In this document: piece after piece, positions 35,762 to 53,239 of the stretch
Position numbering within the stretch: position 1 is the first letter of the stretch
Layout: each line of letters starts with the position of its first letter
From: a virus
Lineage: Duplodnaviria; Caudoviricetes
IMG/VR virus record: IMGVR_UViG_3300042444_000090
Location: 1 to 61,111 of that record
DNA length: 61,111 nucleotides
Direction: 5' to 3' (one strand)
Made by a program: the position numbers and the translations under genes
Notes under the pieces: generated by a model
Told to the model about the DNA's origin: nothing
Databases searched by the model: none
What the model saw: only the letters and a program-made list of their open reading frames with translations

Positions 35762-35815
35762 AAATTTATTTATAGGTTTTGACGCTATGCTTTTTAAGGC
35801 ATTAGCGCAAGAAAA

Positions 35816-35889
35816 TAGCGGGGAGAGGATTTGAACCTCTGACCTTCAGGTTATGGGCCTGACGAGCTACCAGACTGCTCCACCCCGCA
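35816..35889 (-). tRNA. tRNA-Met(CAT), initiator (fMet) type
   Basis: Cloverleaf TGCGGGG..GAGC AGTCTGGTA GCTC..TCAGG CCCATAA CCTGA..GTTCAAAT..CCCCGCT A; 1:72 mismatch, A11:U24; no encoded CCA. Confidence 0.93.
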
Positions 35890-35895
35890 AAGTTG

Positions 35896-36046: not shown

Positions 36047-36229
36047 TTAAACCTCCACACCTACGGCTTCTGCCAGTTTATCGATGTTCCCGTTGTCTAG
36101 CTCGTAGGCCAAAGTAGTGACCTCGGTTTCATCGGTTGTTTTCGGATCGTAATAGATCTCGCCGCCATTGTACGGGACTGCCTCCCAACCATCGGGTTTC
36201 TCGTCCCATTCTGAAAGCAGGATGTCCAT
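36047..36229 (-). CDS. Small acidic protein
   Basis: 60 aa, TAATG-coupled to the giant gene. Confidence 0.6.
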   Translation of the reverse strand: MDILLSEWDEKPDGWEAVPYNGGEIYYDPKTTDETEVTTLAYELDNGNIDKLAEAVGVEV

Positions 36230-39200
36230 TAAGGTATCTTAATCTCTGGAAGAGGGGTTTTCAACATCGAACCTACAACGTCATTGTCGCTTACAGCCTT
36301 CCCCTTTTTGGCATTGGCTACAAGCGTTTTATGCTGTTTTTCGTATTTCGGGAACAGCTTCCTAAGATGTGTCGGAGTTTTAATCAGGAAGTTGTTGCCA
36401 TTGGCAGGGCCAATCATCATCCACGGGTAGGAAGGATGGATCTTAAAGTTGGGTTTCTTCAAAAACGCATCTCGCATCTTCTTCTCCGCTGGAGTCATGG
36501 CCGCTTCCTGCTTTGGATTGTTGCCAAAGTATAGAGCAAAAGCCTCAGGATTTGAAGATAGCTGAATTACGGCCACGGCTTGCCCCGTTGTGGCATTGAT
36601 CATGTCTTCAGAATTCTGCAAGGCATTCACTACATTGGGAAGATCGGGAATACCAGAAACTGACTTAGTCGCTTCTCCTCTTGCCGTAAATGAGTAGCCC
36701 AAAAATTCTTGCAGGAAGTTTTTGTTCGATCCCAACTTCAATAAGCGCTTAAACCATGCTTTATTTTTATGCGCGTTGTATACCTTGAGCGCTTCTTTTT
36801 TGGCAGTAGCCATTAGTTTGGGATCATTCTTAGCAACGCGATTCTTGATCGGAGTTAGCGCCCTGTTGAATGCAATGATTGCGTCTTCTTCAGGCGTATT
36901 CTCAGGAGCGGGAATCGGCTTTTCTCCCTTTGCTGCGCGTATCCTGTTCTTCGCCCCGCGCCTTGTAGCGGCTTTGATCTTTTGCGCCCTTAGGTTTCCA
37001 ATCTCCAAAAGGACATGAGCCAGATCTTTTACCCAAGGCTCCAGTTTCCCTGCCTTGTCAAAGGCATCAACTTCTTTGATGTAATCAGTCCCGAAAGCAA
37101 TGTTGGATCGGTGAGCATCATCCGCCATGATTTGCACGATGTGGTATCCATCGTCTACGTAGGGTAGCCTGTTACGCATTGCATTCACTGGCGCAAGCCC
37201 AAGGTTGCCCCAAACGATCTTATATAGAACGCCATCTGGCCCCATTACGGTTTCCTGATTGGACTTGAGGAATTCGTGCATCGGCCCACCCATGTCCTTG
37301 CCAAGGGTGTGATGCCTGTCTGCCTGCACCATCCCAACGCGCTTGCCGCTGATGTCGCTCAGATCTTTGACAACAGGATTAACTACGCGAGTAGGATCTA
37401 TTTTTACAAGGATCTCAGTTCCAGTATCGTCAATCAGGGAAGCGTAGAAAAATCCACGGGCAGGAACCTTCTTCGGAAGTTTGACTACTCCTGTCTTTGT
37501 AATTGTGAAGTCAGCAACTGGAGGATTTTTGCGCTTTGGAAGCATTAAAGGCATTTCCCCTTCTTCAGGCGGCTCAATCTGGCGCGAGATAAATCCGCCG
37601 CCTTCCATTTCGGTCACGTCATTGAACTCAGGGTTCAGCATTTCCGCTATTGCTTTTGCTTCGTCACGTTCTGCCTGTTCCTGTGTTTTTCCCATCGTGC
37701 GTTGATACAGCAGATCCATTGTCTCAGGTTGGATGTCTACAAAGTCAGACAGCACTTCGGCAGCATTGAGAACATCGTTGTTTGCTGAATAGCCGGGGTT
37801 GTATCCTTCTGGAAATGTTCCTGCAGGAGGATGCACTGCGGACATAACATTCGATATATCGACCAATACATCGTCTATTGGCCGCTCCATTCCTTTCGGA
37901 AAGTTCTTTTTCAAGACGTTAAACGGATCGACACGGGAGTCTGTTTTCTTATCCAAGGCAACAATGTCAGGAAGCGATGCGGCAAGATCTGAAAACAGAT
38001 CCATCATATAGCTCATTGCTGTCTTGTTTAGTTCAATGGACTTTGTCAATTCAGCCGATCTTTCTTCGGCATATGGCATTGGAATTTCTCCGCGATTAAG
38101 TTTTTCCAGAAAGTTCTTGTATATACGTTGCAATGTGGACGGCTCAAAATCGTCCAATATTCTGCGAGCAATCGTTGTCAGGTGGAAAGACCTGTCGAAA
38201 CCACCAGAAAATCCTCCACCAAGCGGAGTGTTTACTAAGTCCATAGCATCTATCTCAAAACGATCTTTTCGGAGCAACACGTCATCTTCAGGAAGATCGG
38301 GATCTCTTTCGTAGCGCCTGCTCGGCATGAATTCAGGCTGCGGCCCCGCGCTCGGATCATTTTCGTCTGTCAGACGATCAATTGAATCGACCCACTCAAT
38401 CCATTGCTGCTCGCCATAGCGGCTCTTCATCAGGCTCACAATGGCTTCCTTATTATAGCCGTATTCGATAGCTTTTGTGCCGTTGGCAAAGTTAATGACC
38501 CATCGGGTATTCAAAGAATCGTCCAATAGGCGCTTGCTAGACGGAAGCGTATCAAAATAGGCAGGAGTCGCCTCTTGGCGCATTTCTTCTGCATCTACTT
38601 GCTCTTCTAATGATGGAATAAGCGACTCAAAGCCATTGATACGGAGGGTATTTTCCCAAGCGCCAGCCTTATATTTCGGCCTGTCGGTTCCAACAATGGG
38701 GATTTGAATTTCTTCAAACTGAGCCATTGGCAGATTGTTTTTTTCAAACATCGCCTGCAATTCGGCCTGTGCCTGCTCAAATGTCTTTAGTGGCGGCGGC
38801 ATTAGCAATTTTGAGTCTATTGCCGTATCACCCTCAAAATATAGCTCAGGAGAGAATGCCCCCGTGCCGTCAGCGCCGGGTACAATTCGGATTCTGGCAA
38901 GCCAACTGCCCTTCTTGTCGTTTAGCTCTCCACTGAATCGGACAAATGAAGACGGCTCGCGCTGCGGCATAAACTGAGGCTGGCCCTCTTGTTCAATGCG
39001 AGCAACGGCTTCTGGAGAAAGATCAACTCTCCACATTGGAACAATGCCCTCAATTAGCTGTTTTTGAAAATCTAAAGCCTCTTCAACGGTGTCAAAGCGA
39101 GGACTGATCGGCTTCATGCTATCGTCTCGACTAACCCAAAACTGCTTGTTCGTCTTATTCCATTCGCTTCTGAGTCTAGTGTCAGTAGCCTGCATTCCAT

Positions 39201-42200
39201 ATTCAGGAACCCTTAGAAAGGTATCAACAGCCTTAGCTCCGTAGGGTTTCATGTATTTCCCAATGTCAGAAGGTTGGACTATATCGTAGTAGCCCTTCAT
39301 TCCTTCTCCGCCAATCGTCATGTCCGCTTCGGTAATGCTTTGCTGGTTGCCTGTTGCGTTTTCTATAATTTGAGAGGCCATTTTTTTGCCAACGATTTCG
39401 TTGAGCTTAACTTCAGCGGGACGATTTCCTTCTGCAGCTTCTCCGCGAACCTCTTCTAAAATGTCATTTATCCGCCCTTCTCCACCAATAACAACCCCAT
39501 CGCTTTTACGGACAATGGCCTTGCCAATCATTCCCGGCGTTTGAAGAACATCAACATCTTCTCCCGGTTCTCCTGATTGATCATAGAGCGGATCTCCCTT
39601 GTAGAAGAACACATCTATTTTGTTTTCGCCCGTCTGGTAATAGCTGATGCCGTCAATAATTTGACGCATCATATCCTGATAGCGCTCAACTTGGGTGACG
39701 CCTTTCGTCCATCCAATCCACTCAATGCCATTCGCGGCTACTGGTTTATTAGGAATAGCCTGTATCGCTTGCAACGCTTCGGGGCTGCTATACCCGTAAG
39801 CGTCTTTATAACGATTAGCTCTCTCAACTGCCGCATCAAATTCTTCTCTGCGAATTGCCTCATCAGCGCTTACAGCTTTCTCTAACACTCGTTTGAAAAG
39901 TTGCGTTCCCCAATCGCGCTTGAACGGCATATCGGGAATTCCCGCAAAATCGCCATCTTCGGCTTCCTGCTTTAGAACGGCATCTTCCACAAGGTTTGCG
40001 GCCATTTGGCCTATGGTCATCTTTTGAAGATCACCAGAATATGGATCCATCGCTTCTGTTTCCGTAGTGTCTTCAAGCATTTGTTTCACGGCTTTTTTGA
40101 TTGCTTCGGCTTCCATGCTGTCAGCCTGCATTCTTAGTTCGTGATATGGATCGCTTGTATCCATCAACGGGCTAGATTCGATATCACGCTGAACTTGTTC
40201 GATGGTTTTTTTGCCAGCCTCTCGGCTTTGCTTTCCAAGCAGCGATACGTAAATGTTCTCTAGTCTCCATCTGCTTAGTGTATCTATCAATTTAACTGGA
40301 TCTTCTTCACGCCAACCGTAGTCGCGACCTTTTTGCGCTCTGTCCGATTGGAACTCTTCAATCATTATGCCCAAGCGGCCATTTTCATCGTAACGGTATT
40401 TGTACCTGACATGACCCAAATAGCCGGGGATTTGCTTATAATGTCCTGAACGAAATTCTTTTAGCGGCTTTCCCTCGCGATTCGTGCGCGGAGTCATGGT
40501 CAAAACCATTTCATAATATCCATCTCCACCAGCAAGCGTAAGTGATCCAGTATTATATCGATTTCCTCCATCAACAATTAACAATTCTGGTCTATTCGCT
40601 TTGATATGCTCCATCAAAAGATCCTTACTGACTTTGCCCCCGCCCTGAGTAGCGAGCTTATTAATTACATTAATGGCATCGCTGAACAGAACTTCATCTT
40701 CCCTGATTTTATTAGGGGAATTCCAATTGACCCTAACCTTTACGCCTTCGGTAGCCCGTGAACGTGCCGCTGCTTCTGCTATGGCTTTTTGATCTGCTGG
40801 AACTCTTGCAATGACGGATGTTTTATTATTCTCGTCAGTTTCCGTGACAATATACTCTCCAAGCATGGCCTTGGCTTGCTCTGGCGTCACATACTTACCC
40901 TGAATTTTGCTATTTAGCGTCCTTTCAAGCTGACTATAGAAGCCCCGCTCGCTTGTTGGTTCTTTCATTTCCCTGCGCGGCATGAATGTCGGCAAGCTGT
41001 TCGTGTTTACGGCATCAACAAGCGCTGGTGTGATCGGGAATATCCAGCCTTCATCGGCATCTATGTAGTCGATATTTTCCTGTTTCTGAGCCTCTCCAAC
41101 AGCTTTCTCAAGCGTCTTGTACTCGGCTACAGCTTGGTCTGGCATTGTTGGGTCTGCAGGGTCTTTGGGATCTTTCATCCCAACGTATACCAAGTCTCCC
41201 CTGCCCATGTTTTGCGGCTTCGGAATTTGGAATGGAAATACTTTGCTTCCGTATTTTTTTAGGAACTTATTGACCTCATTGACGGCAATTTCATCGTAGT
41301 AAGGCTTGAATTTCAAACCGCCAAAAAATGTCGATCCGCGCTTTGGTTTGATGGTGTTGCTTATCCCGTTTTTGGCATTGTTAAGGATTTCATCTGCCAT
41401 TGACTTCGGAATGATTTTGTCGAGAGCCTTACCTTGGAAATCATAACTCCCCATGCCCGGAGACATCTCAGCAAAAATGACTTCTTTGCTGTTAGGATCG
41501 ACGGTCAAATATGCATAGACCCCACTAGACGGATACAGCAAAACTTGAACCTGTCCCGAATCATCGATGCCTTTATATTCGACCTTTTCAAGAGGAGCCA
41601 TATCGCGCCAGCGCTTGGCTTGGGTTTTTCCGCCTGACCAGTAGACGTATTTTTGTTCGTTCTTAACGGCATCTACAATTTGGTTTTTAATCAAAGCTAA
41701 GCCCCATTCACGGCTCTGACTAAATGGAGCTTCAGGAGGGGCTTCCCTGTTTACTGGAACGGGATCTCCCGCCTCAACACGCAATTTAATGGTCGGTTCA
41801 GGGAGGTTGCTAACATCTAAAACCCCTCCAACCATTGGCAGCTTAGTTCCAGATTGTTTTGCAGACTGTCCCGCAAGAAATCTCTTCATATTGGGATCTG
41901 TTCCATAGCTCCCAAAATATTCGTCTAGATATTGCTCGGCATCTTCGCGTCTATCAAAATCTTGTTTCAAAGTAATGTCAGGGCCGTCATCAACATTTAG
42001 AATCACCTTGTAAGAGTTAGTATACTGGCGATACCCAATTGGATTGCCCTGACCATCTTTTCTGCGAGCGGCCTGATTTCTGTCGCTCTGCATTTCGTGG
42101 ATATGGCTAATCGGAACAAGATGGCTGAATCCAGTTCCTCCATATGCTCGCATTGCAACGTCAGGAGATCTGAAGTCCCAACCCTTATACGTCAAATAAA

Positions 42201-45200
42201 AGTCTGCTTCTTGGCGATTTATGATGTCGTTTTTGACAGCTTCTGCCACAACATGAAGAGGAATTCCAGATTTGGCGTCCCATTCAGCAAATTCAGGATC
42301 AGGCGTGTATATTGTTTTTAGCGCCGATTCGATCTGTGGTATTGTCCGCAGTGTCGGATCAACAATCATGCGGTCACCTACGCGCATATGGGCTATATAG
42401 TACGGATAGCTTTCGTAATGTGTTTCAGTGAATTCTAGACCTTCTGCTCGTCCGCGATTGCTTATTTGAAAGTCTAATGCCTGCTCTCTAGAAAGATTGC
42501 GAGCAACCTTCTCCGCCATTGCTTTTGTATCGTAGTAAGCGCCGACAGGAGCATCTGTATTTGGGAAAACCCTGTCTCCCTGCTCAAAGACAACTTCGTA
42601 TTTTCCTGCTCCAGAAAGCGCGTCTTTTGGCCTTTTCCTGACTGTATACTTTACAACTTCAAGTTTTGGACGGACTTGCAGAATTTTTTCTCTGTAATTT
42701 GTATCACCAAGGATTCGGTATTCGCCGTATTGAGTAGTAGGACGATCCCGATATCCACCAATTGCTTGCGGCCAATATTGTTTAAGACCAAGTTCATTCA
42801 CATTATAAATGCGCTGCGTTGGATCTTTTACCATGCCATTGATGCGCCAGTAAGCCTGAGAACGCTTTTCCTCGGATGCAATTTGCTGATCTAGCTCAAG
42901 AAGATTGATCTCGCTTTCGTCCATTGCCAAATCGCGCTTGCGGACAGCTTCATCCAGCTTACGCATTGCCTTGGCAGTAGCCAAATCTTTGTCCTTTGCA
43001 GCCTCTAGCTCTCTGCTGGCAGCTTCGCGCTCGGCCATATACTCGTCATTGATACGTTGCCAATCCTTGTCAGCAATCTGATCACGTTTAGACTGTATTT
43101 GCTGCGCTCGCTCATCTGCTGCTTCTGCAGTCAGGCGCGACCAACGCTCTGCTTCTTCTACTCCAAAATCATCAATGCCTTGTATGGCTTTCAGAAGCGC
43201 ATACTTATCAAGATTGAATCCCTGATCGGCCAACTCTCCCAACACTTCTGTTTTGATAAATCCGCTAGGTTGGCGAATCCTTGCTCTTTTAAGCGCTGAT
43301 TGGGCCTCTTGCTCAGAAAGATAATATGGGAAACGAGCAACTGCGGGACTAGGACTCCAGATGTTTCCAGCTTCATCATAGATCCCCCAAGATCCAGTGG
43401 CGGGATCTTGATTGACCGTGTAGTTGCCAACTAGGTCGGGAATGCGGTTGCGAGCTTCTTGGTCAAGATTCAAATACTGCGAAAACAAAGTCTCTAATTT
43501 AGAAGCCAAACGCTTGCCTGCAGGGGCCATGTTTTTCCATGAAATGGCGCGTTCTCCAGAATCTTGTCCACCAAGAACGCTAAGCATGAATTTGACGTTA
43601 TTCTGGCGGAGGTACTCCATCAGATCGGCTTTATTCACGTTCTTGCCGTCATTACTCAGCGTATCTATGGCCTCGTTAATTTTGCTCCATTCAATTTCGG
43701 AAGGCTTAATTCCATTTTGCGGATTGTTGATGATAGCTTTAACCTGTTCGATTGTTGCTGATTTGCCTTGAATCTTCTCATCTAGCGCTCCCTCAAGCCT
43801 GCTGTTGAAACCGGGGTACACGCGCTCGTCAATGGTCATTTCCCGCCTTGGCCGCATGGGCATGAACGCAGCAGCTTCTCGGAGATCGCGGAGAGACTGC
43901 AGTTCACTTGTGTAGTCCTGACCGTAGGCTTCAGCAAATTGATCGCCAAGCGACCTCTCTTCGTCTTCAAGAATCCTAAGGCGCTCGCGCTGCTCAGAAG
44001 TCATGCGGAATCCCTCTTTTGGCAAGGTTTCTGGCTGGCGAATACCGCCATCGCGTTGAGGCATAAAGTTGGCTTTTGCCAAGCCATAGGCCACAGGCAT
44101 TTTCGGCAAGGATGTTGGAGCGATTTGCGCGATGTGATCAATGCGGACGGACATAATCGTCCTGTCCATATTCAGATCGCGGGGATCTCCTTTTCTGCGA
44201 GGAACCTTTGTCCGATCAGGATTCGCTCCTTCTGTAGATGTGTCAAATAAGTTAAGAAAATCGTTAAAGACGTTTCTCTTCATGGCCGCTACTTGCGGAT
44301 CTGCATCAAGCGGCTTTGCATTAGGGCCAGCAATTTGTCCGCTTTCGGTATATCCACTGCCGGGCAATCCCTGCTGCCAGTTATTGAGGTAACTCTGAGT
44401 AAACTCGTTCCAGAATTGTTCTTTGCTGCCCTTCCAAGGCATCAAACGCGCAGGCATCCTGTCGCCCCATGCATGAAGTTTATCAAACATTCGACCTACT
44501 GAAATCGCCGTGAAAAGGAAGTTTCCAGCCTTGGACATCATCAATCCAATCGGAACAAGATCATAATACTTCGGTGAAAAGGCTTCATATTCGCCCTTTT
44601 CATTCATCATCGCGGCATAATTGATCAAGTACCTTGATCCATCGTTGCGAACCAACGAGTCATTGATATTTAGAATAACGTCCTTGATGCTTTTCGGTAG
44701 AATTGTTTCGGGCAGGCTTTTAATAGCTTCAACCTGTAAGGGGCTTAGAGTTCCACGATATGTATCGCCGCCTTCTTTGGTAGGATCAAAACGATTGGGA
44801 GCGCCATAGTCAGGGGTATCTAGTGCCTCCTGAATGATTTTATTGCGCTGCTTTAGAATCCGTTTCGCTTCTTTGGGTTGATGGAACTTAGGCGTTACCC
44901 CGTCTGGCTGCATCGCAATCTGCCTTGCGACAATAATCTTGCTGCCTACTGGAATGCCTTGGATGTTAACCTCTGCAGACAGTGGCCCGTATCCATTGCT
45001 TTGCTGTACTCCAGCATCAGTAATATCCCAAGAGCCTTCGTAGACCATTGTCCCTGACAACGCCTGTGGAGCGCCAATCGCTTTTCCATCAGGCCCAATA
45101 ATTTGTGCCTGAACTTCAGTAACTGGCAGCGGACTGTATGTTCCAAACGTCTCTAAAAGCGCTTTGTTTTTGACCAGTTCAGACCGTGTAATTCTAGGAG

Positions 45201-48200
45201 CCTGCTTGCCTTTTACTGCAGGACTGATCTGCCCCTGCAAATCAATCATGGCTTCCAACGCTTCACGTGCCAGCAACTGAACTTCGGGAGTGAATCTTGC
45301 CCCGCTATTGTCTGAAATAACGTCCTGCGAGTCAGGAATATTAAGAAGACGCTTCATGGCAGACAGCTTCTTCGATAGGGTTTCAAACTTTGCTCTCTTA
45401 AATGCTAAGTTAGCCTTGTCAAAAATGACCTGAATGGCAGGAGTGGGAGCCTTTCCAAAAACTCGGCTCATGCTGTCAGCGGCCAAGTCTGCCGTAATTT
45501 CTTCACGCAGTTTGGCTGCTGCCTCTTTTTGATTGATTAGAACTTGGCCTGTTTGTGGATCTCTTAATACTTGTCCACTAACTGGATCGCGTTGCGCGAC
45601 AGAATTCAGGAAAAATTCAGGGTTTACGGCAGTTCCTGCGTATACATTCACGTAAAGATCGGCCAATTCTGATTCGGTCAGCCCCTCGCCAACTTCGGCA
45701 ATTACCTGACCATCGGCATTTTTGATCTGTTCCTTGAAAAGAATACGATATGGCTCAGCCATCAACTGCTGGTACTCAGGAATTTTGCTTAAATGGTGTC
45801 CCGCCTCATGCCTTAGCGCCGTCAAAGGATCTTGACCACTATTAATGCGGCGAATAACAGCATCTGTATTGATGACCATCGTCGGTTTGGCGTCATCCAT
45901 GACAATCTTAGGCCCACGAAACTGAGGAATGCCGCCAGAAATGACAGTGTCATCTATTGTTCCATCATAAAATCCATCCTGCTCTGCGTATGCATCAAGT
46001 TGAGCATCAGAAGCGTCAGGATATTTAGCGCGTAGATGGTCTTTAATTTGTTGGCTGCTCAACAAACGAATGCCCACGTTATTCTGACCACGAACAAATC
46101 CGCCGTTAGCCTGATTGTGAATTCCTGCGAGCGTTAGCAGATATTGCCTTCCAAATTCATTGCGCGTTTGGACGTTTGCTCGTTTCATGCGCTCCAGCGC
46201 ACGTTGGTTATTCGCCAAATTTTTCTGTGCCACCTCCGCAAGCTGAGGATTATTGCTTGCAGCAGCAGCTTGAGCAGCTTGAGCGGCACGATCAACGCGC
46301 TGTTGCTGGTTGTTGATGACAACTTGCCAATCTGTCATGGCATCCACATTGCCTCGGTCAGTGGGATTAAGATCTTGGTAAGCCTTCCAAGCGTCTGAAT
46401 CTTCTTTGCGCCTGCGCCGTGCATCGTAAACGGGATCATCCATCCCGAAAACCTTGTTCATCAGGCGCGTTTGTGTGCGACCTAAGCTAGACCACAGCAA
46501 ACCCTGACCCAACATCGCGGCCATTTCTTCAGAATCTTGAGAGTCCGCAATGCCAACGGCCAATCCAACGAGAGTCGGCTCAACGCCTGCACGAATATAC
46601 TCTCTGGTATTGTCAATAATGCTGTCTAAGCGCTTGCCACCAGAAGCTGTTAGCCTGTCGCTCAAGCCGCCCTTAATCGGCGTTGCTTTAATCGGCTCTC
46701 CGCCTTCTGCCCTAGGAGCACCTTTGCCTGCCTGACGGTCACGGCGGAGCTTAGACATCGTTTCAAATGTTCCAGCCTGACCTCCAGCGGATAGGCGCTT
46801 CGCCTCATAGTAGTTTCGGATGAATTCAGGGGTAGATTTAAGCATCCTCGCTCCGATCAATCCCCCGATAACTCCCAAAGGTGAATCAGGCTCTAGGCCA
46901 TAGCCAATGCCAGCGCCAGCCACATATGGTGAAACTTGACGAACCTTCTTAAAGAAGTTGCTTCTATCAATGGCCTCTTGCGCCCGTTTAAGAGATTCGT
47001 CTACCGCAACAGCAGTTTTTTCTCTTTTCGTTACACGTTGAGACTTGTCGAATGTTGCCGCCTGTTTTGAGCGCAGCTTTTGGGCATCTTCGGCCAAAAT
47101 CCGATTCACTTCATCGGGGGTTTTCCCACGGAATCTCAGGTAGCTCGCAACCTTGGGTGTCGCATATGACCCCAATTTGAGCAAATTCATGCCGTAGCCA
47201 ACCGCATCCAATCCGAATCCCTCTGGCAGAAGGATCTCGCCAGCGGTCATAATGTCCTGATCCATCTCAGGAATCAGTTTTTTGGCTTCCGCGATGGCTT
47301 CAAGACCTCCAACCGTCATGGCCTCTAAGTCGCCTTCACGCGCAGTAATGGCTTGCTCGCGGGTATATCCATAATCCCGCATATAGTCTTCGACAGTTCC
47401 AATACTAGACGTAGCAACAGCATTCACTGCAGGCGCAATAAAGTCCAAATACCTGTGGTAAGCCGTTGGATTGAGCGATTCAAACTCGTATGCCGCCCCT
47501 TCATAGTTCTTGCGAGCTTTCCAGCGCTCAAAACTTGTATCGTAGCTGTTTAGGCCAACGCTTTCGCTCAAAAGATCCCATCCCTCAACCCCGCCAGCAC
47601 CCATTTTCTGACCAAGTTTGGCAAGTTGGTAGGGAAGGTCTACGGCAGGAGAAACAAAGGCCATAGGCGCTGCTTTAGCCCTGTCGGTGACATCCTGCTG
47701 CGTTTTAAGGATCTCTTGCTGCTGCTCAGGAGTGTATTCCTGCAAAACTAGATCAAGATACTCTTTGCCAGTAAATTCAACGCCACCACCCGTGTATCCC
47801 GCTTGAGGATAATACTCGCCAATGCGCTCGTTTACGCGCTCCCGTGCGCGGACAGGAAGCTGAGAGTGAAGCTGCCATGCAAGATTGTAGTCCTTGCCAG
47901 TAATCTCGCCCAAAGCGACATCTCTGACGCCTTTTGCAACGCCTTTTCCAACGCCAACAAGCGTTTCCCCAAACATGACTGCCATGTCGATTGGGAATTT
48001 GCCAACAGCGCCCCCAAGATTTAGCCACTCCTGAGAGTTTTTAGGGATGCGCCAAGCGCTATTTGAGCGAATATAGTCATATACCTCGCGCTCTTGCTTG
48101 GCGTTTAGAGGCATATCGGGACGCAATTTGACAGCTTCTGCCAGTTCTTCAGTGCTTAAAGAGTCCCGCAGATCCATCAAGTTGGCGTCCATTTCAGAGC

Positions 48201-48657
48201 CAGCCTGATCAGCGGAAAGTCTTAGAAAAATATCTAGCGGTTTGGTTGAAACTTCTTCTTTCGGCTCTTCTGCCTTTGGCTGCGTAATGATTTCAGGAGC
48301 CTTAGTTGGCTCTTCCTGCTTGAACGGAAGCATCCACGCCTTCCAATCTTTGGCAGGAGCGCTGATCTCAGCGCCTCGCGTCATTTGCTCAATCGTAACG
48401 GGCTTCCCTGCCTCTACTTTAGGAGGTTCTGGATTAGGAGGAAGCTGAGGGGCGGGTTCTGCTTTGGCTGCTTCGGTCAAAGGCTCAGGAACAGCACCTT
48501 TTTCGGCTACAACAGGAGGAAGCGCCATGCGCTCACGCTCAACAACATCTTCAGCCTCTGCCAGAATTTGATCAGCGGGTGTAAGAGGGGGTTTTTGACC
48601 CTCTTCTGCATCTAGCGCCTCTTGCGCTTCCCGCAGGATGTCTTCAGCAGTAGCCAT
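36229..48657 (-). CDS. Giant (4142 aa) polyvalent internal virion / ejection protein
   Basis: Last gene of the internal-protein cluster; HEAGH zincin motif; duplicated ExQSD domain; six FMPxR-like motifs. Confidence 0.8.
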   Translation of the reverse strand: MATAEDILREAQEALDAEEGQKPPLTPADQILAEAEDVVERERMALPPVVAEKGAVPEPLTEAAKAEPAPQLPPNPEPPKVEAGKPVTIEQMTRGAEISAPAKDWKAWMLPFKQEEPTKAPEIITQPKAEEPKEEVSTKPLDIFLRLSADQAGSEMDANLMDLRDSLSTEELAEAVKLRPDMPLNAKQEREVYDYIRSNSAWRIPKNSQEWLNLGGAVGKFPIDMAVMFGETLVGVGKGVAKGVRDVALGEITGKDYNLAWQLHSQLPVRARERVNERIGEYYPQAGYTGGGVEFTGKEYLDLVLQEYTPEQQQEILKTQQDVTDRAKAAPMAFVSPAVDLPYQLAKLGQKMGAGGVEGWDLLSESVGLNSYDTSFERWKARKNYEGAAYEFESLNPTAYHRYLDFIAPAVNAVATSSIGTVEDYMRDYGYTREQAITAREGDLEAMTVGGLEAIAEAKKLIPEMDQDIMTAGEILLPEGFGLDAVGYGMNLLKLGSYATPKVASYLRFRGKTPDEVNRILAEDAQKLRSKQAATFDKSQRVTKREKTAVAVDESLKRAQEAIDRSNFFKKVRQVSPYVAGAGIGYGLEPDSPLGVIGGLIGARMLKSTPEFIRNYYEAKRLSAGGQAGTFETMSKLRRDRQAGKGAPRAEGGEPIKATPIKGGLSDRLTASGGKRLDSIIDNTREYIRAGVEPTLVGLAVGIADSQDSEEMAAMLGQGLLWSSLGRTQTRLMNKVFGMDDPVYDARRRRKEDSDAWKAYQDLNPTDRGNVDAMTDWQVVINNQQQRVDRAAQAAQAAAASNNPQLAEVAQKNLANNQRALERMKRANVQTRNEFGRQYLLTLAGIHNQANGGFVRGQNNVGIRLLSSQQIKDHLRAKYPDASDAQLDAYAEQDGFYDGTIDDTVISGGIPQFRGPKIVMDDAKPTMVINTDAVIRRINSGQDPLTALRHEAGHHLSKIPEYQQLMAEPYRILFKEQIKNADGQVIAEVGEGLTESELADLYVNVYAGTAVNPEFFLNSVAQRDPVSGQVLRDPQTGQVLINQKEAAAKLREEITADLAADSMSRVFGKAPTPAIQVIFDKANLAFKRAKFETLSKKLSAMKRLLNIPDSQDVISDNSGARFTPEVQLLAREALEAMIDLQGQISPAVKGKQAPRITRSELVKNKALLETFGTYSPLPVTEVQAQIIGPDGKAIGAPQALSGTMVYEGSWDITDAGVQQSNGYGPLSAEVNIQGIPVGSKIIVARQIAMQPDGVTPKFHQPKEAKRILKQRNKIIQEALDTPDYGAPNRFDPTKEGGDTYRGTLSPLQVEAIKSLPETILPKSIKDVILNINDSLVRNDGSRYLINYAAMMNEKGEYEAFSPKYYDLVPIGLMMSKAGNFLFTAISVGRMFDKLHAWGDRMPARLMPWKGSKEQFWNEFTQSYLNNWQQGLPGSGYTESGQIAGPNAKPLDADPQVAAMKRNVFNDFLNLFDTSTEGANPDRTKVPRRKGDPRDLNMDRTIMSVRIDHIAQIAPTSLPKMPVAYGLAKANFMPQRDGGIRQPETLPKEGFRMTSEQRERLRILEDEERSLGDQFAEAYGQDYTSELQSLRDLREAAAFMPMRPRREMTIDERVYPGFNSRLEGALDEKIQGKSATIEQVKAIINNPQNGIKPSEIEWSKINEAIDTLSNDGKNVNKADLMEYLRQNNVKFMLSVLGGQDSGERAISWKNMAPAGKRLASKLETLFSQYLNLDQEARNRIPDLVGNYTVNQDPATGSWGIYDEAGNIWSPSPAVARFPYYLSEQEAQSALKRARIRQPSGFIKTEVLGELADQGFNLDKYALLKAIQGIDDFGVEEAERWSRLTAEAADERAQQIQSKRDQIADKDWQRINDEYMAEREAASRELEAAKDKDLATAKAMRKLDEAVRKRDLAMDESEINLLELDQQIASEEKRSQAYWRINGMVKDPTQRIYNVNELGLKQYWPQAIGGYRDRPTTQYGEYRILGDTNYREKILQVRPKLEVVKYTVRKRPKDALSGAGKYEVVFEQGDRVFPNTDAPVGAYYDTKAMAEKVARNLSREQALDFQISNRGRAEGLEFTETHYESYPYYIAHMRVGDRMIVDPTLRTIPQIESALKTIYTPDPEFAEWDAKSGIPLHVVAEAVKNDIINRQEADFYLTYKGWDFRSPDVAMRAYGGTGFSHLVPISHIHEMQSDRNQAARRKDGQGNPIGYRQYTNSYKVILNVDDGPDITLKQDFDRREDAEQYLDEYFGSYGTDPNMKRFLAGQSAKQSGTKLPMVGGVLDVSNLPEPTIKLRVEAGDPVPVNREAPPEAPFSQSREWGLALIKNQIVDAVKNEQKYVYWSGGKTQAKRWRDMAPLEKVEYKGIDDSGQVQVLLYPSSGVYAYLTVDPNSKEVIFAEMSPGMGSYDFQGKALDKIIPKSMADEILNNAKNGISNTIKPKRGSTFFGGLKFKPYYDEIAVNEVNKFLKKYGSKVFPFQIPKPQNMGRGDLVYVGMKDPKDPADPTMPDQAVAEYKTLEKAVGEAQKQENIDYIDADEGWIFPITPALVDAVNTNSLPTFMPRREMKEPTSERGFYSQLERTLNSKIQGKYVTPEQAKAMLGEYIVTETDENNKTSVIARVPADQKAIAEAAARSRATEGVKVRVNWNSPNKIREDEVLFSDAINVINKLATQGGGKVSKDLLMEHIKANRPELLIVDGGNRYNTGSLTLAGGDGYYEMVLTMTPRTNREGKPLKEFRSGHYKQIPGYLGHVRYKYRYDENGRLGIMIEEFQSDRAQKGRDYGWREEDPVKLIDTLSRWRLENIYVSLLGKQSREAGKKTIEQVQRDIESSPLMDTSDPYHELRMQADSMEAEAIKKAVKQMLEDTTETEAMDPYSGDLQKMTIGQMAANLVEDAVLKQEAEDGDFAGIPDMPFKRDWGTQLFKRVLEKAVSADEAIRREEFDAAVERANRYKDAYGYSSPEALQAIQAIPNKPVAANGIEWIGWTKGVTQVERYQDMMRQIIDGISYYQTGENKIDVFFYKGDPLYDQSGEPGEDVDVLQTPGMIGKAIVRKSDGVVIGGEGRINDILEEVRGEAAEGNRPAEVKLNEIVGKKMASQIIENATGNQQSITEADMTIGGEGMKGYYDIVQPSDIGKYMKPYGAKAVDTFLRVPEYGMQATDTRLRSEWNKTNKQFWVSRDDSMKPISPRFDTVEEALDFQKQLIEGIVPMWRVDLSPEAVARIEQEGQPQFMPQREPSSFVRFSGELNDKKGSWLARIRIVPGADGTGAFSPELYFEGDTAIDSKLLMPPPLKTFEQAQAELQAMFEKNNLPMAQFEEIQIPIVGTDRPKYKAGAWENTLRINGFESLIPSLEEQVDAEEMRQEATPAYFDTLPSSKRLLDDSLNTRWVINFANGTKAIEYGYNKEAIVSLMKSRYGEQQWIEWVDSIDRLTDENDPSAGPQPEFMPSRRYERDPDLPEDDVLLRKDRFEIDAMDLVNTPLGGGFSGGFDRSFHLTTIARRILDDFEPSTLQRIYKNFLEKLNRGEIPMPYAEERSAELTKSIELNKTAMSYMMDLFSDLAASLPDIVALDKKTDSRVDPFNVLKKNFPKGMERPIDDVLVDISNVMSAVHPPAGTFPEGYNPGYSANNDVLNAAEVLSDFVDIQPETMDLLYQRTMGKTQEQAERDEAKAIAEMLNPEFNDVTEMEGGGFISRQIEPPEEGEMPLMLPKRKNPPVADFTITKTGVVKLPKKVPARGFFYASLIDDTGTEILVKIDPTRVVNPVVKDLSDISGKRVGMVQADRHHTLGKDMGGPMHEFLKSNQETVMGPDGVLYKIVWGNLGLAPVNAMRNRLPYVDDGYHIVQIMADDAHRSNIAFGTDYIKEVDAFDKAGKLEPWVKDLAHVLLEIGNLRAQKIKAATRRGAKNRIRAAKGEKPIPAPENTPEEDAIIAFNRALTPIKNRVAKNDPKLMATAKKEALKVYNAHKNKAWFKRLLKLGSNKNFLQEFLGYSFTARGEATKSVSGIPDLPNVVNALQNSEDMINATTGQAVAVIQLSSNPEAFALYFGNNPKQEAAMTPAEKKMRDAFLKKPNFKIHPSYPWMMIGPANGNNFLIKTPTHLRKLFPKYEKQHKTLVANAKKGKAVSDNDVVGSMLKTPLPEIKIP

Positions 48658-48658
48658 G

Positions 48659-50425
48659 TTAGTCTACAGCAATAGCGGATTCCATTTCTGCTTCTAGAAC
48701 TTTCTTTTGCGCCAACAACTTTTTCAGTTCATCGAACTTTGCGTTGTATTCATCAGTTCCTTTGGTCAGTCCTGTCATTTCGACAACTTTTGCTCGTACT
48801 TGTGATTCAATATCCCCAAGCGGATCGGGGGTTTTCAGGTCAATTGCCACCATTTCTGGACGCGCTCCAGATTGTTCAGCAAGACGCTTATAAATGTTGG
48901 TAAGCTGATTCTGACCACGTTGTCTCTCCATAAAAAGAGACTTGCCCTGTTTGACAAAGTTTTTTCTCTGATCGGGGGCAAGCCTTCCGCCAGTAAGCAG
49001 TCGATTATATTCCGCTCTGATGCGGTCAGGAACGCCTGCCGCATTCTGAGCGTTTGCAAACTCTTGTTCTCGGACAACACTGCCGGGGTCTAGCAGCTTC
49101 ATAAAGCTGAAGATCATCGCAAGATCTCCCGCTCCCTCGCCACCAGACTCTGCCATACGCGAAGCACTTTTGATGTTAGCCCATGCATTTTGAACCACCA
49201 TGTAGTCCTTGGATGACGCAATAAACTCCTTACGCAGCTTTTGTTCCGCATCTGTATCAGCGCCAGCGGTAGTTGCAGGCTTTTCTGCTTCGGCTCTTGC
49301 CTTACCAACTTCAAGTCTGGCTTTTTCAAGGGCTAGGCGCTCAGCTTCCGTTTGCGGAGCTTTGGGCTTCGGCGGCATGACTTCAAAATAAGTTTCACCA
49401 GTTGGGTCATCCACCCTAGGAACAACTTCTGGACGCTCGTAATTCTCAGGCATTGGCATTTCTGCCACTCGTCGCGCCTGATCATAATTCGCGTACGCTC
49501 CCGGCTCAAATCCAGCGGGAAACTCCGTTGTTGGAGGAGCCATTTGGGCCAACGGCGCTCCCGCCGTGCTAGGAGTAAGATCACGAACCCCCTGCTGCAA
49601 TTCTTGCATTTGGCGAGCAGTTTCAGAGGGGATATAAGCGATATTAATCTGTCCAGCTAAGTCGGTAAGCGGCAGTCCCATTGCGCTTGCAGGAAGAGCC
49701 TGCGGTGCTCCGCCAGCTTGAGCAGCAGCAAATTGTGCAGCCTGCTCAGGGTTAATCCGCATCGCTCCAGCGGGAATAACATCGCTTCCTACTGGCAATA
49801 CGGGCGGAGGCGTCAGATTAAAAAGCGATCCCTCCCCTTGGACAGCAGGCAAATCCTCCTCGTCTTTTGTTGGAAGATCTGGCTCAACGGGAGGAATATC
49901 TCGTAGGTCTTCATTAAGATTTGGCTCAAGTGGGTCGGTTCCGTCGAAACTTTCTTCATCTTCAATGTCTCCGCCACCGCGATAAGGCGCTGTAGAGGGT
50001 TCGCCAATCATGCGGCGGGGGGGCTTTTTATTTGCCCCAACTTCCTGAAGGCGTTGTGCTGCAGATTCGCGCAAATACTGAATGCGTTTTTGCACGGCAT
50101 CTGAAGAACGGGCAGACTTAATCTGTTCAATATCTAGCGCCCTGCTGTGCTTTCTTTCTTCTGCAGCCACAGCCCGTTCTTGCTCAACATTGCTCATGTA
50201 AGCCTGCAATCCCGCTGCTCCAAGAGCCTGAAGAGCGCCATACGCAGCAGTAGCGGGAGCTTCTGGATTCTCGTCTCCAATCGCATATGCCCCTGCCACG
50301 TCTCTTGTAAAATCATTTTGAGTGACTACAGGTGTAAATGGAGAAAGACCCTCCAAAGCAGAAGTTATTTTTGACTGCTTAGGGGTAAATGAATATCCCG
50401 CTGTTTCTGACATTGGCGCTGCCAT
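48659..50425 (-). CDS. Internal virion / DNA transfer protein
   Basis: GDLAMIFSFMKLLDPGSVVREQEF motif typical of podovirus ejection proteins; coiled coils. Confidence 0.7.
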   Translation of the reverse strand: MAAPMSETAGYSFTPKQSKITSALEGLSPFTPVVTQNDFTRDVAGAYAIGDENPEAPATAAYGALQALGAAGLQAYMSNVEQERAVAAEERKHSRALDIEQIKSARSSDAVQKRIQYLRESAAQRLQEVGANKKPPRRMIGEPSTAPYRGGGDIEDEESFDGTDPLEPNLNEDLRDIPPVEPDLPTKDEEDLPAVQGEGSLFNLTPPPVLPVGSDVIPAGAMRINPEQAAQFAAAQAGGAPQALPASAMGLPLTDLAGQINIAYIPSETARQMQELQQGVRDLTPSTAGAPLAQMAPPTTEFPAGFEPGAYANYDQARRVAEMPMPENYERPEVVPRVDDPTGETYFEVMPPKPKAPQTEAERLALEKARLEVGKARAEAEKPATTAGADTDAEQKLRKEFIASSKDYMVVQNAWANIKSASRMAESGGEGAGDLAMIFSFMKLLDPGSVVREQEFANAQNAAGVPDRIRAEYNRLLTGGRLAPDQRKNFVKQGKSLFMERQRGQNQLTNIYKRLAEQSGARPEMVAIDLKTPDPLGDIESQVRAKVVEMTGLTKGTDEYNAKFDELKKLLAQKKVLEAEMESAIAVD

Positions 50426-50428
50426 ATT

Positions 50429-51160
50429 TTATCCTCCGCCGTAAGTTAGATTTTGAGATGAAATGTTGAACCGATTACTTCTGGCATTTCTTCCGCCAGA
50501 TTCTTGATTGATAGCTGCAGCAGCAACGGCAGGGGCGACATTGCTAGGAGCCATATAAGGAGTGGCCCCTGCAAGAGAACCCCCGCCTGCTCCTCCAACA
50601 TTAGAAAGAGCCTGAAGACGTGCCGCATTAATATCGAATCCCCCGCCCACGTTCCCCACCGATGTGTTCGCTAAAGCGTATTTCTGACCCGCAGCGGAAT
50701 CTGCGGCCACTTGTGCAGCATTCATTGCGCTCAATCGTCCACTTGCTCTTTGAATAGAAGCATTTTGCGCTGCTGTTGCCGATTGGTTTTCTGCAGCAAT
50801 TGCCGCATCTCGTTGACGCTTAGCTTCGGCCTCAGCAGCCGCTTTTTTTTCTGCATCAAGTTTTGCCTGAAGCGCTTTAATAGCTTTATCGTTTTCTGCC
50901 TGTTGTGCCGCTGATGTCCCTCCGACAACTGTTACGGTTGGACGCTGCGGATTTACAATACTATTAACCGCTCTTCCAACGCCCCCAAATGCATTGCCAA
51001 CTGCTCTTCCTGCAGAACTAACCGCTCCTGTAACGCCTCTCCAAGCGTTACTAATTGCGCGGCCAAGACTCCATCCACCTAAAAGCAAAAGCCATTCGGG
51101 ACGTTCTGGAGAAAACGCAAGACAAACAGTATTGATGATAAAATCAACAATGCCGTGCAT
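50429..51160 (-). CDS. Ala/Gly-rich internal virion protein, paralog 3
   Basis: GGGFDINAARLQALSNVG; C-terminal NRFNISSQNLTYGGG. Confidence 0.65.
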   Translation of the reverse strand: MHGIVDFIINTVCLAFSPERPEWLLLLGGWSLGRAISNAWRGVTGAVSSAGRAVGNAFGGVGRAVNSIVNPQRPTVTVVGGTSAAQQAENDKAIKALQAKLDAEKKAAAEAEAKRQRDAAIAAENQSATAAQNASIQRASGRLSAMNAAQVAADSAAGQKYALANTSVGNVGGGFDINAARLQALSNVGGAGGGSLAGATPYMAPSNVAPAVAAAAINQESGGRNARSNRFNISSQNLTYGGG

Positions 51161-51161
51161 A

Positions 51162-51707
51162 TTATGCTCCTCCGAATGTCAGATTTTGTGCTTGCGGCAA
51201 TCCGAAACGATTTTGCGGAGCATTTGTTCCGCCTGCTTGTGCATTGGCGGCAATCAGACCCTGAGGAACTCCCATCGGAACAGCGCCACCTGAAGCTGCA
51301 GGGCCAGACGCATATGGCAACGCAGCCGCAGCGCCTGCACCAGCAACATTGCCAAGAGCCTGCATTTTAGCGGCGTTGATATCGAATCCTCCGCCGCCAC
51401 CCAATCCAGATGTCGCCATACTTTGACGTTGTGCCGCTTGCGTGTCTTGCAATTGTTGTGAAGCCTGCAGTCCGCTCAGTGAGCGTTGTGCCTGTTGAAC
51501 AGAAGTAAGCTGTTGGCCTCGCGCCTGATCATCCTCGGCTTGAATTTTGATTTGCCGTTGACGCTCTGCTTCAGCTTTGGCAGCAGCAGCAGCCGCCGCT
51601 GCTTGTTGCGCCCTTAGCTGATTCATCATCTGCTCCATTCTGTTGTCTACTTGCGGCATACCAGTTACCGCTCTCGTTCCCCCGCCTCTTCGTCCCATGC
51701 CGCCCAT
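51162..51707 (-). CDS. Ala/Gln-rich internal virion protein, paralog 2
   Basis: GGGFDINAAKMQALGNVA; NRFGLPQAQNLTFGGA. Confidence 0.65.
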   Translation of the reverse strand: MGGMGRRGGGTRAVTGMPQVDNRMEQMMNQLRAQQAAAAAAAAKAEAERQRQIKIQAEDDQARGQQLTSVQQAQRSLSGLQASQQLQDTQAAQRQSMATSGLGGGGGFDINAAKMQALGNVAGAGAAAALPYASGPAASGGAVPMGVPQGLIAANAQAGGTNAPQNRFGLPQAQNLTFGGA

Positions 51708-51708
51708 A

Positions 51709-52245
51709 TTATGCTCCTCCAAAGGTTAGTTTTTGTGCGTTTGGCAAGGTAAATACATTCGATTTTTGAGTGCTTCCACCAGTGCCAGTGTTAAGTGATT
51801 CGGCAGTAGTCAACGCTGGATTAATTAGCGCTGGATTTGCCGCGAGATTCGCAGCCGTCGAGGGGAGCGTAGTGGAAGCAGCACCCAAGTTAGCCAAAGC
51901 GGCATTCCTAGAAGCGTTGATATCAAATCCTCCGCCCGTTGCCGCCATTCCCGCAGCTTCTTGCTCTTGTTTATACCTGTTGAGCGCTGCTTGATCAGCC
52001 AAACCCTGTGTAGCTTGCATTCTGCTAAGTGTATCAGCAGCGCTCTGCGTCGATTGCTGCATCCTTTGTTCGGCGCTGCGATCTTCTGCGGCAATTGCAG
52101 CTTCCCGTTGTGCTTTTGCAGCAGCAGCAGCAGCTTCTTTAGCTGCAGCAATTTGCTGTTGCATCATTTGTTGCATCATAGCCGCTGAATTGTCAGCAGG
52201 CATTGAATAAGTGATGTTTCCACCACCTCCGAATAGTCCTCCCAT
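51709..52245 (-). CDS. Ala/Gln-rich internal virion protein, paralog 1
   Basis: GGGFDINASRNAALANLG; NVFTLPNAQKLTFGGA. Confidence 0.65.
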   Translation of the reverse strand: MGGLFGGGGNITYSMPADNSAAMMQQMMQQQIAAAKEAAAAAAKAQREAAIAAEDRSAEQRMQQSTQSAADTLSRMQATQGLADQAALNRYKQEQEAAGMAATGGGFDINASRNAALANLGAASTTLPSTAANLAANPALINPALTTAESLNTGTGGSTQKSNVFTLPNAQKLTFGGA

Positions 52246-52310
52246 AATTTTATCCTCCGTTTTGTTAGTTGTTATGCTTTCTTGAGGGTTCTCCCAAGAA
52301 AAATGTTAGG

Positions 52311-53225
52311 TTATGCCGTCATTTGTGTAAGCCCTGACATTGTTTGATCAAATCCTTTGCCAAAACCTGAGCTTCCTCCTGTTTTGGCTTTATAAATCGG
52401 CCCGTCAACTGCGCCATCAAGCCCTCCGAAAATCGATCCGAATAAAGCGCCATATGCAGACCCTGTAGGCCCACCAAAAGATCCGCCCGTCCATCCCTCA
52501 GATCCTCCAATGCTTATCCCCTTGAGCGTCCGATCTATCCAAGGGGTTCCTGTTTTTACTCCGCCAAGGCTTTTCAAGGCCATCGGAACAATTGCGCCCA
52601 TAGCGCCAGAAGCAATGTTCCCGCCCCCTCCGCCAAGACTTTTCATAGCCCCCGTCATTCCTCCGCCTGCAGCCGTTCCAGACGCAGCTTTTGCCGCTCC
52701 AGCGCCAGTGGCAACGTCTTTTCCTCCGCCTAACAGTCCACCAAGCCCTCCTGATCCACCTCCTGATCCACTCATCATTGACATTGCTGCAGGAATTGCC
52801 GCTGACAAGATGTCTGTTCCTGCCCCCATCGCGGCACTTCCAGCGGCCTCATTATTGTCTGCTGCCACTTGATAATTTTCGGGATTATCAGGAGAAAAAG
52901 TAAATCCGTTTTGCTCGCGCTCGCTCTGGCTTTGCATGGCATTCCATTGTGATGCAGCAGAAGATTGGCGCTGAGACGTGATTGCGCGGGAAAATCTATC
53001 CGTTGCGGATGTTCCAAGCGCTTCTTGTGCAAGCCGCATCAGAGCTTCTGACCGCTTATCTGCCTCAGGTTTCCCGTAAAACTGTCCTTCTGACATCAAA
53101 TTAGCAGCATAATTTTGACGCGCTGCTCTTTCAGATCCAGCAGAAGGCGCGGCCATACGGTTGGCTTTATAATCAGCCGCCGTTGGCAGGGTTGCCTTTT
53201 GAACCTGTTGATTTGATCCGCCCAT
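52311..53225 (-). CDS. Gly-rich internal virion (membrane-penetrating) protein
   Basis: MGG start; glycine-zipper-like C-terminal half. Confidence 0.6.
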   Translation of the reverse strand: MGGSNQQVQKATLPTAADYKANRMAAPSAGSERAARQNYAANLMSEGQFYGKPEADKRSEALMRLAQEALGTSATDRFSRAITSQRQSSAASQWNAMQSQSEREQNGFTFSPDNPENYQVAADNNEAAGSAAMGAGTDILSAAIPAAMSMMSGSGGGSGGLGGLLGGGKDVATGAGAAKAASGTAAGGGMTGAMKSLGGGGGNIASGAMGAIVPMALKSLGGVKTGTPWIDRTLKGISIGGSEGWTGGSFGGPTGSAYGALFGSIFGGLDGAVDGPIYKAKTGGSSGFGKGFDQTMSGLTQMTA

Positions 53226-53239
53226 AGTTTTATTTAGAA

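Follow-up and report, generated by a model that had tools for sequence, protein, structure and literature searches.

The giant gene of the phage genome described here raises the question of whether a very large viral protein can be divided into separate effectors at signals written into its own chain, and by an enzyme that it carries itself. The window, that is, the whole stretch of DNA analysed, is a virus record of 61,111 bp (IMG/VR IMGVR_UViG_3300042444_000090; Duplodnaviria, Caudoviricetes) that is complete or nearly complete (97%) and carries all of its long open reading frames (ORFs) on the minus strand. Positions 36229-48657(-) form a single open ORF of 4142 amino acids (aa), named P0001. 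An earlier note on this DNA had described the product as a possible self-processing polyprotein with a HEAGH protease motif, a possible third zinc ligand in REEITAD and six boundary motifs of the form FMPxR; all of these lie exactly where it had placed them in the ORF, and all six boundary motifs are indeed C-terminal to HEAGH. We found that the boundary signal is real, stands at module boundaries and changes in concert within proteins, and that the active-site motif is conserved. What we infer beyond this, namely cutting, the scissile bond, the identity of the enzyme and travel in the virion, would make P0001 a virion-delivered polyvalent polyprotein whose junctions are processing sites for its own embedded metallopeptidase, a reading that has a little less than an even chance of being correct.

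Six junctions divide P0001 into seven modules

P0001 begins with module B (aa 1-1530; 44068..48657(-)), an N-terminal scaffold that is conserved family-wide and ends '..KMPVAYGLAKAN' immediately ahead of the first junction. This junction, FMPQR at aa 1531 (44053..44067(-)), is followed by module H (aa 1536-1597; 43867..44052(-)), a short spacer of two helices, and by junction 2, FMPMR at aa 1598 (43852..43866(-)). The paralogous modules C1 (aa 1603-2557; 40987..43851(-)) and C2 (aa 2563-3228; 38974..40971(-)) are separated by junction 3, FMPRR at aa 2558 (40972..40986(-)), and C2 is closed by junction 4, FMPQR at aa 3229 (38959..38973(-)). The remainder of the chain consists of module E (aa 3234-3442; 38332..38958(-)), junction 5, FMPSR at aa 3443 (38317..38331(-)), module F (aa 3448-3704; 37546..38316(-)), junction 6, the degenerate MLPKR at aa 3705 (37531..37545(-)), and the conserved C-terminal module D (aa 3710-4142; 36232..37530(-)) with its invariant D-R..G..MGG..H.SN. 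Cutting at the motifs yields the layout B(1530)-H(67)-C(960)-C(671)-E(214)-F(262)-D(438).

FMPxR was seen five times in P0001 against 0.014 expected from composition, and in 2000 shuffles of the protein it was absent from 1975, occurred once in 25 and at least twice in none. The position aligned with MLPKR reads FLPKR in the relatives P0003 and P0007 and YLPKR in P0005, in each case before the same 'KNPPVADFT' module, and by this alignment MLPKR is a true sixth junction site. Self-comparison of P0001 revealed one large internal duplication, the first aligned residues of which are the Phe of FMPMR (1598) and that of FMPRR (2558); its last block, 2412-2577 versus 3085-3245, crosses FMPRR and FMPQR.

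Modelling of fragments had been proposed in the earlier note, and in AlphaFold2 (AF2) models the motifs do fall in coil or low-confidence stretches. The model of aa 700-1610 (47-row alignment, mean pLDDT 76) is confident up to a short helix at aa 1524-1529; confident structure stops at FMPQR (aa 1531), which starts a 21-residue stretch with pLDDT <50. The two helices of module H are of low confidence, and the terminal stretch, again with pLDDT <50, contains FMPMR. In the model of aa 3150-4142 (15-row alignment), the three motifs are found in long coil segments, which lends weak support to their placement in linkers because the model is poor (mean pLDDT 50).

P0001 has no match in Pfam (LPD, ART and peptidase models included) or in PHROGs. 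In the protein atlas, module C1 reached a best score of 0.82 and was assigned to no family, and module D scored about 0.8 to the HNH, GH-E, Ntox15 and Endonuclease_NS_2 small nucleases, a weak lead towards a His-Me/HNH nuclease.

Relatives exchange cassettes at the same signal

A word-based search returned 20 relatives at E≤1e-3 out of 1658 scored candidates. Except for the distant P0020 and P0021, each has one HExxH at aa 320-1060 and then several [FY][ML]Px[RK] or FMP sites. When 18 of the proteins (P0004, P0020 and P0021 excluded) were cut at the motifs and the pieces were clustered, the same cassettes recurred in different orders, with B always first, D usually last and variable modules between them, as in P0007 (B-x-E-F-x-A-A-x-A-D), P0008 (B-C-A-D) and P0011 (B-G-C-D). 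BLAST breakpoints between P0001 and seven differently built relatives lie mostly 0-16 residues from a motif in both partners, and the start of module D coincides exactly with MLPKR, FLPKR or FMPQR in this comparison. The best Pfam stretches in seven relatives (ART-PolyVal, GNAT families, PBECR5, DUF7178 and Phage_L5_gp82) each lie within one inter-motif piece; none crosses a junction, and the PBECR5 stretch of P0015 starts four residues past FMPKS. Duplication, cassettes, breakpoints and the Pfam stretches of relatives therefore agree with the proposal that the motifs mark module edges. Among 24 related loci, no cargo module was found outside the giant ORF as a naturally split gene.

To extend the family, we used aa 700-1530 in a profile-free exhaustive search of 1.84 billion proteins, which gave 176 cluster representatives (E≤1e-3). 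The family proteins with a length of 1500 aa or more, 131 in number, contain FMP 311 times against 15.8 expected, and [FY][ML]P 516 times against 120.9. Splitting 121 proteins at the end of B (near-duplicates P0002-P0004 and loci dropped) revealed that [FY][ML]P is sevenfold enriched after this point (391 versus 55.5 expected) and is not enriched inside B (33 versus 42.6). The motif statistics in homologs that the earlier note had suggested thus place the signal in the relatives and its enrichment only past B. Internal sites numbered at least three in 57, two in 18 and one in eight of the 96 proteins with at least 600 aa past the first junction.

In most of 146 aligned rows, B ends with '..LP[VI]xYGxxKxN' and then [FYMLWA][ML]P. 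The consensus of 387 sites has I (33%) at -2 and R/Q/N (66%) at -1, followed by F/Y, M/L, P and then A/E/S, after which comes an acidic, Pro-rich stretch. At 317 internal sites, residues 5-25 past the motif exceed the cargo average in hydrophilicity (Kyte-Doolittle value about -1.0 versus -0.66). The family-wide invariant core is [FY]-[ML]-P, and Arg at +4 is confined to the P0001 clade and two sister clades; FMPxR as a boundary motif thus holds for P0001, with five copies plus MLPKR, and gives way to the shorter core in the family at large. Tandem junctions 14-30 residues apart occur right after B in P0005, P0006, P0007 and P0019 (e.g., FLPRR-14 aa-FLPKR), and at this position P0001 has its 67-aa two-helix spacer.

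Each lineage uses its own dialect of the signal

One version of the motif is used throughout each protein, and the versions differ among lineages. The clade of P0001 has FMPxR, P0005-P0007 have [FY]LPxR, and P0008-P0014 and P0019 have FMPER/FMPQR; P0015-P0018 use I[SRA]-FMP-x, without the Arg. Further dialects are R-F-[AS]-P-E in P0038 and P0042, [FWY]-M-A-E in P0067 and P0071, and N-[FY]-L-P in P0060. Across 69 proteins with at least three sites (339 sites), within-protein agreement at -2, -1, 0, +1, +3 and +4 was greater than in all 1000 permutations, a measure that is inflated by internal duplications and shared descent. Non-homologous junctions have nevertheless changed in parallel (M to L, M to A/S, P to A), so that a common reader is needed, and concerted dialects are expected if one reader, encoded alongside, reads all sites.

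A candidate metallopeptidase lies upstream of the junctions

HEAGH (aa 950-954; 45796..45810(-)) is the sole HExxH of P0001 and the candidate zincin active-site helix. A nearly invariant 'PE' (P960-E961; 45775..45780(-)) stands six residues past H954, and REEITAD (aa 1051-1057; 45487..45507(-)) provides an Exxx[DE] on a predicted helix and a candidate third zinc ligand. H-E-x-x-H occurs in 135 of 140 aligned rows, HExxE in three, and YExxH and HDxxH in one each; several of the 135 in fact carry a one-residue insert, HExxGH. Position 1057 is D or E in 115 of the 140 rows. Two alignments, with 76 and 47 sequences, show no variation at E951 or E1053 and at least 90% conservation of H950, H954 and E961. 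E961 is replaced by Gln in P0060, P0119 and P0124, the three relatives with Glu for the second His, and P0119 and P0124 have lost the junction array. In the model, both motifs are on helices (pLDDT 80-88): HEAGH on helix 245-257 (pLDDT 84-86), preceded by three strands, and the E1053 motif on helix 344-369.

Nine relatives (L025, P0065, P0074, P0079, P0080, P0087, P0098, P0107 and P0116) have a one-residue insert, HExxGH/HExxxH, exemplified by HEGGGH, HEIGGH and HEVVGH, and still bear junction arrays. The second motif reads EE[IV]xA[DE] family-wide. HExxGH together with EExxAE are motif forms that we take to be those of M49 dipeptidyl-peptidase III; the likeness is at the motif level only, and the sequence and fold searches gave no match to an M49 entry. 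Sub-threshold Pfam matches were to Peptidase_M43 in five of 22 members (best E=0.066) and to Zn_peptidase, Reprolysin_4 and Peptidase_Mx in one member each. Searching BFVD with the B model gave nine fold matches at E≤0.001, all of them phage proteins, six annotated as ART-PolyVal-like or LPD. These matches to annotated polyvalent proteins, together with the ART-PolyVal, GNAT and PBECR5 modules of relatives, support the polyvalent-protein setting that had been proposed.

The junction motif is tied to the protease by co-occurrence only, with HExxH always upstream of the array. A complex prediction for B aa 740-1530 (47-row alignment) with a 50-residue peptide (aa 3207-3256) scored 0.00; it was run without controls and counts neither for nor against binding.

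Aromatic tails close modules in other polyvalent proteins

ART modules of the P0001 family end '..IPLSQRFNxxxPDIR' immediately before FMP. We used the ART module of P0009 (aa 1866-2085) as a query and found 1034 large proteins at E≤1e-5; 120 matches are listed, 115 of them new, and 108 of these 115 have no B domain detectable by phmmer. The counts that follow refer to these 108 proteins among the matches listed. Their ART modules share this tail, after which come [FY] and, most commonly, Ser, and D[IV]R[FY] was seen 206 times against 12.3 expected. HExxH is present in 87 of the 108, and 180 tails lie after the first HExxH and four before it. The tail occurs in 71 of the 87 HExxH-bearing proteins compared with nine of the 21 HExxH-less ones (Fisher p=0.0007, uncorrected for relatedness).

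The tail 'NPxxxxPDIR[FY]S' also ends other modules outside the ART context. In distant proteins, the C-type module closes with 'GQP[LM]F': in BLASTP, an unnamed module found in both P0021 and P0020 matches the C modules of P0001 (E=1e-18 and 4e-16), and P0021 carries LPD5, LPD1, ART-PolyVal and LPD39. Because D[IV]R[FY] and GQP[LM]F also end modules of other polyvalent proteins, FMPxR would seem to be a dialect of an aromatic signal that marks module ends in polyvalent proteins generally.

It is possible, although doubtful, that polyvalent proteins in general are true polyproteins with a processing code, in which an aromatic-centred signal ends every effector module and evolves together with an N-terminal metallopeptidase that cuts at it once the protein has been packaged or ejected. 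We would just as tentatively assign to such a code the forms D-I-R-[FY]-S in most lineages, I-[RQN]-[FY]-[ML]-P in the P0001 family and FMPxR in the P0001 phage. If a code of this kind were true, thousands of unnamed anti-host effector modules could be delimited in metagenomes from the signal by itself, which would also offer a portable protease/site pair.

Proposed processing and competing explanations

We propose that P0001 is a polyvalent protein that probably travels in the virion and enters the host by ejection. Module B (aa 1-1530) would carry a gluzincin-like motif, made up of HEAGH and E1053xxxD1057 on a later helix, and would be followed by the exchangeable modules H, C1, C2, E, F and D. 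The boundary signal, [FY][ML]Px[RK] in the P0001 clade and approximately I-[RQN]-[FY]-[ML]-P family-wide, would mark where a cognate protease acts, with the embedded metallopeptidase as the likeliest candidate. The likeliest scissile bond is the one ahead of the aromatic residue, between x and [FY] in x-[FY]-[ML]-P, and cleavage there would put a large hydrophobic residue at S1'. Thermolysin-like enzymes prefer a large hydrophobic residue at this position. One 460-kDa chain would in this way give rise to B and free modules, either in the capsid or after ejection.

Several observations weigh against this proposal. On the side of the enzyme, the 99-residue spacing between H954 and E1053 is long for a gluzincin, with E961 as an alternative ligand. 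PDB sequence searches with P0001 and with a 22-row profile of the HExxH region found nothing, and the 911-residue model had no PDB fold match at E≤0.001, with collagenase T/G, PfA-M1 and lethal factor at E=0.3-0.8 only; the latter test is weakened because the query is a multi-domain model. The zincin is thus a candidate assigned from motifs, with no family match: in the zincin claim of the earlier note the conservation of HExxH and E1053 holds up, and sequence and fold searches confirm no zincin. On the side of the signal, [FY][ML]P is not always a junction, since FLPAY sits at the start of an ART/DUF3990 domain. Thirteen of the 96 cargo-bearing relatives have no internal [FY][ML]P, though most of them keep HExxH; some of the 13 use FAP, FSP or FMA, and in the rest no recurring signal was found. 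Residues ahead of the motif are not unusually hydrophilic, so the aromatic residue could cap the preceding module, and as the hydrophilic shift comes only after the sites, the signal behaves like a C-terminal tag of each module. In addition, the complete B-only relatives P0135, P0138 and P0139 (1024-1158 aa) stop 4-7 residues past N[FY][SL]P, in the contexts N-F-S-P, N-F-L-P and N-Y-S-P. They have nothing to release, and the first motif may therefore partly belong to the B fold or serve otherwise. Other short relatives extend past this point by just a helical tail of about 150-250 aa.

Some of these points would be accommodated if the junctions were docking motifs that stay uncut, for example a strand added to a partner sheet. 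A host factor could then serve as the reader, as could the portal, the capsid interior or the conserved C-terminal half of B, and the modules would be held, ordered or handed over while an unfolded 'beads on a string' chain is packaged or ejected. Concerted dialects suit any single reader, protease or not; the motif abuts the end of the preceding module as a C-terminal tag would, B-only relatives retain it at the extreme C-terminus without cargo, the alternating I-R-F pattern fits a short strand, and B is conserved best at aa 1250-1530 and not in the HExxH region. However, one tag per module is not obviously needed when modules are covalently linked, the tandem sites resemble redundant cut sites, and the strict conservation of H-E-x-x-H upstream of every array would go unexplained, and we therefore regard docking as rather unlikely. 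It is less likely still that the junctions are cut by a different protease (a phage prohead or maturation enzyme, a virion protein or a host enzyme) with the HExxH domain acting on host targets such as the cell wall or host proteins. Enrichment, dialects and breakpoints are silent on which enzyme cuts, P0060 reads HExxE yet retains five N[FY]LP sites, and D[IV]R[FY] tails are kept in nine of the 21 HExxH-less polyvalent proteins among the matches listed; moreover, it is suggested in the phi24B preprint (bioRxiv 10.64898/2026.04.10.717836) that the metallopeptidase domain of the large ejection protein of that phage acts on the cell wall. Nevertheless, no protease family was recognised in the 10 head-module ORFs (E≤1) or in the other ORFs scanned, and a maturation protease usually trims head proteins as well, whereas the motif is all but restricted to the giant protein, the single FMPxR elsewhere in the phage (see below) not being conserved. 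Lineage-specific dialects also speak against a conserved host enzyme. The weight that remains after processing by the embedded enzyme, another protease and docking goes to passive or unknown roles.

In a passive role the motifs would have no reader: they would be structural caps or linkers that descend with the modules, or would arise at recombination junctions as cassettes are exchanged. Cassettes are indeed swapped at motif positions, and in distant polyvalent proteins an aromatic residue likewise closes modules of the same types (GQP[LM]F, DIR[FY]); the signal may thus in part descend with the module. We nevertheless find this very unlikely: unrelated modules (B, C, E, F, ART, GNAT and PBECR5) share the same terminal tripeptide, all junctions of a protein have changed together in each lineage by the substitutions described above, and the codons differ synonymously over 9-15 nt, which is too short for homologous recombination. 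The six P0001 sites are written with TTT/TTC, CCT/CCC/CCG/CCA and CGC/CGG/AGG, and all four Pro codons are used in 93 sites of 24 related IMG/VR loci; the junction signal is shown by these comparisons to be under protein-level selection. Since the codons vary synonymously, a DNA recombination signal was ruled out, and of the module-shuffling alternative raised in the earlier note there remains the exchange of cassettes at the motifs. The other alternative raised there, that the invariant Met of FMP is an internal translation start from which modules are also made separately, agrees with the ATG at +1 in five of the six P0001 sites. It is contradicted by Leu at +1 in sister clades (28 of the 93 sites, 16 of them with CTT), by Ala or Ser at +1 in some lineages, and by Shine-Dalgarno-like sequence at background frequency (upstream of 15 of the 93 sites versus 13% of random in-frame positions), and has next to no chance of being right. 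Self-cleavage of the Asn-lyase type at the first junction, which a nearly invariant Asn precedes, was discarded, since at the later junctions this position is occupied by R, Q, S, K, A, T or E.

Comparison with known systems

Zincin-like peptidases (MPTase), which form hubs in polyvalent proteins of phages and conjugative elements, have been proposed to release the domains of these proteins autoproteolytically (Iyer et al. 2017, PMC5512222). P0001 resembles the proteins described there in being a giant multi-module phage protein with an HExxH domain upstream of disparate effector modules; its C modules also match a module of LPD1/LPD5/LPD39-bearing proteins. It differs in that P0001 itself has no Pfam match and in the explicit lineage-specific junction signal defined here. 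No passage on a cleavage site or inter-module signal was found in the accessible main text of PMC5512222, and a site motif for polyvalent-protein release was not found in the literature searched. The same paper draws an analogy with RNA-virus polyproteins, which share with P0001 a multi-function chain and a short site motif at each boundary that co-varies with the virus's own protease, and differ from it in hosts, enzymes and purpose, P0001 serving effector delivery and not genome expression. According to its summary of P1 DdrB, this anti-defence protein with an MPTase domain is head-packaged and is proteolytically processed to about 76 kDa before packaging; unlike the arrangement proposed for P0001, there is a single processing event and the MPTase is C-terminal.

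In Stx phage phi24B, the virion protein gp47 (2811 aa) bears LPD5, LPD1 and LPD38 along with a MuF-C metallopeptidase domain, and is a proposed ejection protein (bioRxiv 10.64898/2026.04.10.717836). Like P0001, it is a very large polyvalent protein with a metallopeptidase domain, and gp47 itself is found in podovirus virions; the available part of the preprint reports neither processing of gp47 nor a junction motif. No similarity between gp47 and P0001 was detected (tblastn, 50,697 phage records). A further parallel is offered by the MARTX toxins, in which conserved delivery regions flank variable effector cassettes and a protease lies within the chain. Their internal cysteine protease is thought to free the effectors at short linker sites, after Leu, once delivery has taken place. 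MARTX, however, is a secreted bacterial toxin with a cysteine protease, whereas P0001 comes from a phage, its putative enzyme is a metallopeptidase and its signal is aromatic-Met/Leu-Pro; the two have no sequence relation.

Many phages and plasmids are believed to use polyvalent proteins as 'first-strike' cargo, and for most modules of these proteins no function is known. The junction signal provides a sequence-only rule for splitting giant ORFs into functional units that can be passed to structure prediction and screening, and makes the processing hypothesis concretely and cheaply testable. There is also a hint that an aromatic module-end tag downstream of an HExxH domain spans many unrelated polyvalent proteins.

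Cysteine depletion and genomic setting

None of the 4142 residues of P0001 is Cys. Across the family, 36 Cys were counted among 362,230 residues, and 106 of the 131 proteins are Cys-free, compared with a mean Cys content of 1.0% in 23 other ORFs of the phage. The 108 unrelated large ART-PolyVal proteins among the matches listed contain 0.12% Cys, and 47 of them are Cys-free. Such avoidance of Cys fits chains that would pass unfolded through the tail and the periplasm or envelope, and is an independent clue to travel of this kind.

The giant gene follows a 708-aa ORF and a block of small ORFs, with tail-fibre and terminase genes on the same strand. The 708-aa ORF (gp708; 54728-56854(-)) has a weak PHROG match to 'internal virion protein' (phrog_511, E=1.7e-4) and is 54-98% identical across 21 related loci. 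At aa 448 it reads FMPER within the conserved context 'LWESFMPERxDSYL', the only FMPxR elsewhere in the phage; because relatives read FTQNR, FTPSR, FIPSR or FVPER at this position, it is probably not a junction signal. Searches with P0001 (in two pieces), gp708 and the terminase by tblastn gave zero matches in 50,697 phage records, that is, no cultured relative in this collection. The B alignment gave 16 pattern matches in 185,579 species genomes, none of them confirmed as a prophage copy, and there is therefore no prophage or host clue for this phage.

Six ORFs of 588, 243, 186, 178, 304 and 280 aa lie just upstream of the giant gene (window positions 48659-54082(-)). They contain one Cys among 1779 residues in total and may encode co-ejected internal proteins; the 588-aa ORF is the only one with a PHROG match (phrog_13634, unknown function). 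A tRNA-Met (CAT) gene at 35815-35890(-) lies directly downstream of the giant ORF. The head-gene region carries a GMA12/MNN10-type glycosyltransferase-like ORF (13722-14333(-), Pfam E=2e-16) and a class I methyltransferase-like ORF (17730-18338(-)), and the 1358-aa ORF at 949-5025(-), with a pectin-lyase-type PHROG match, is a probable tailspike.

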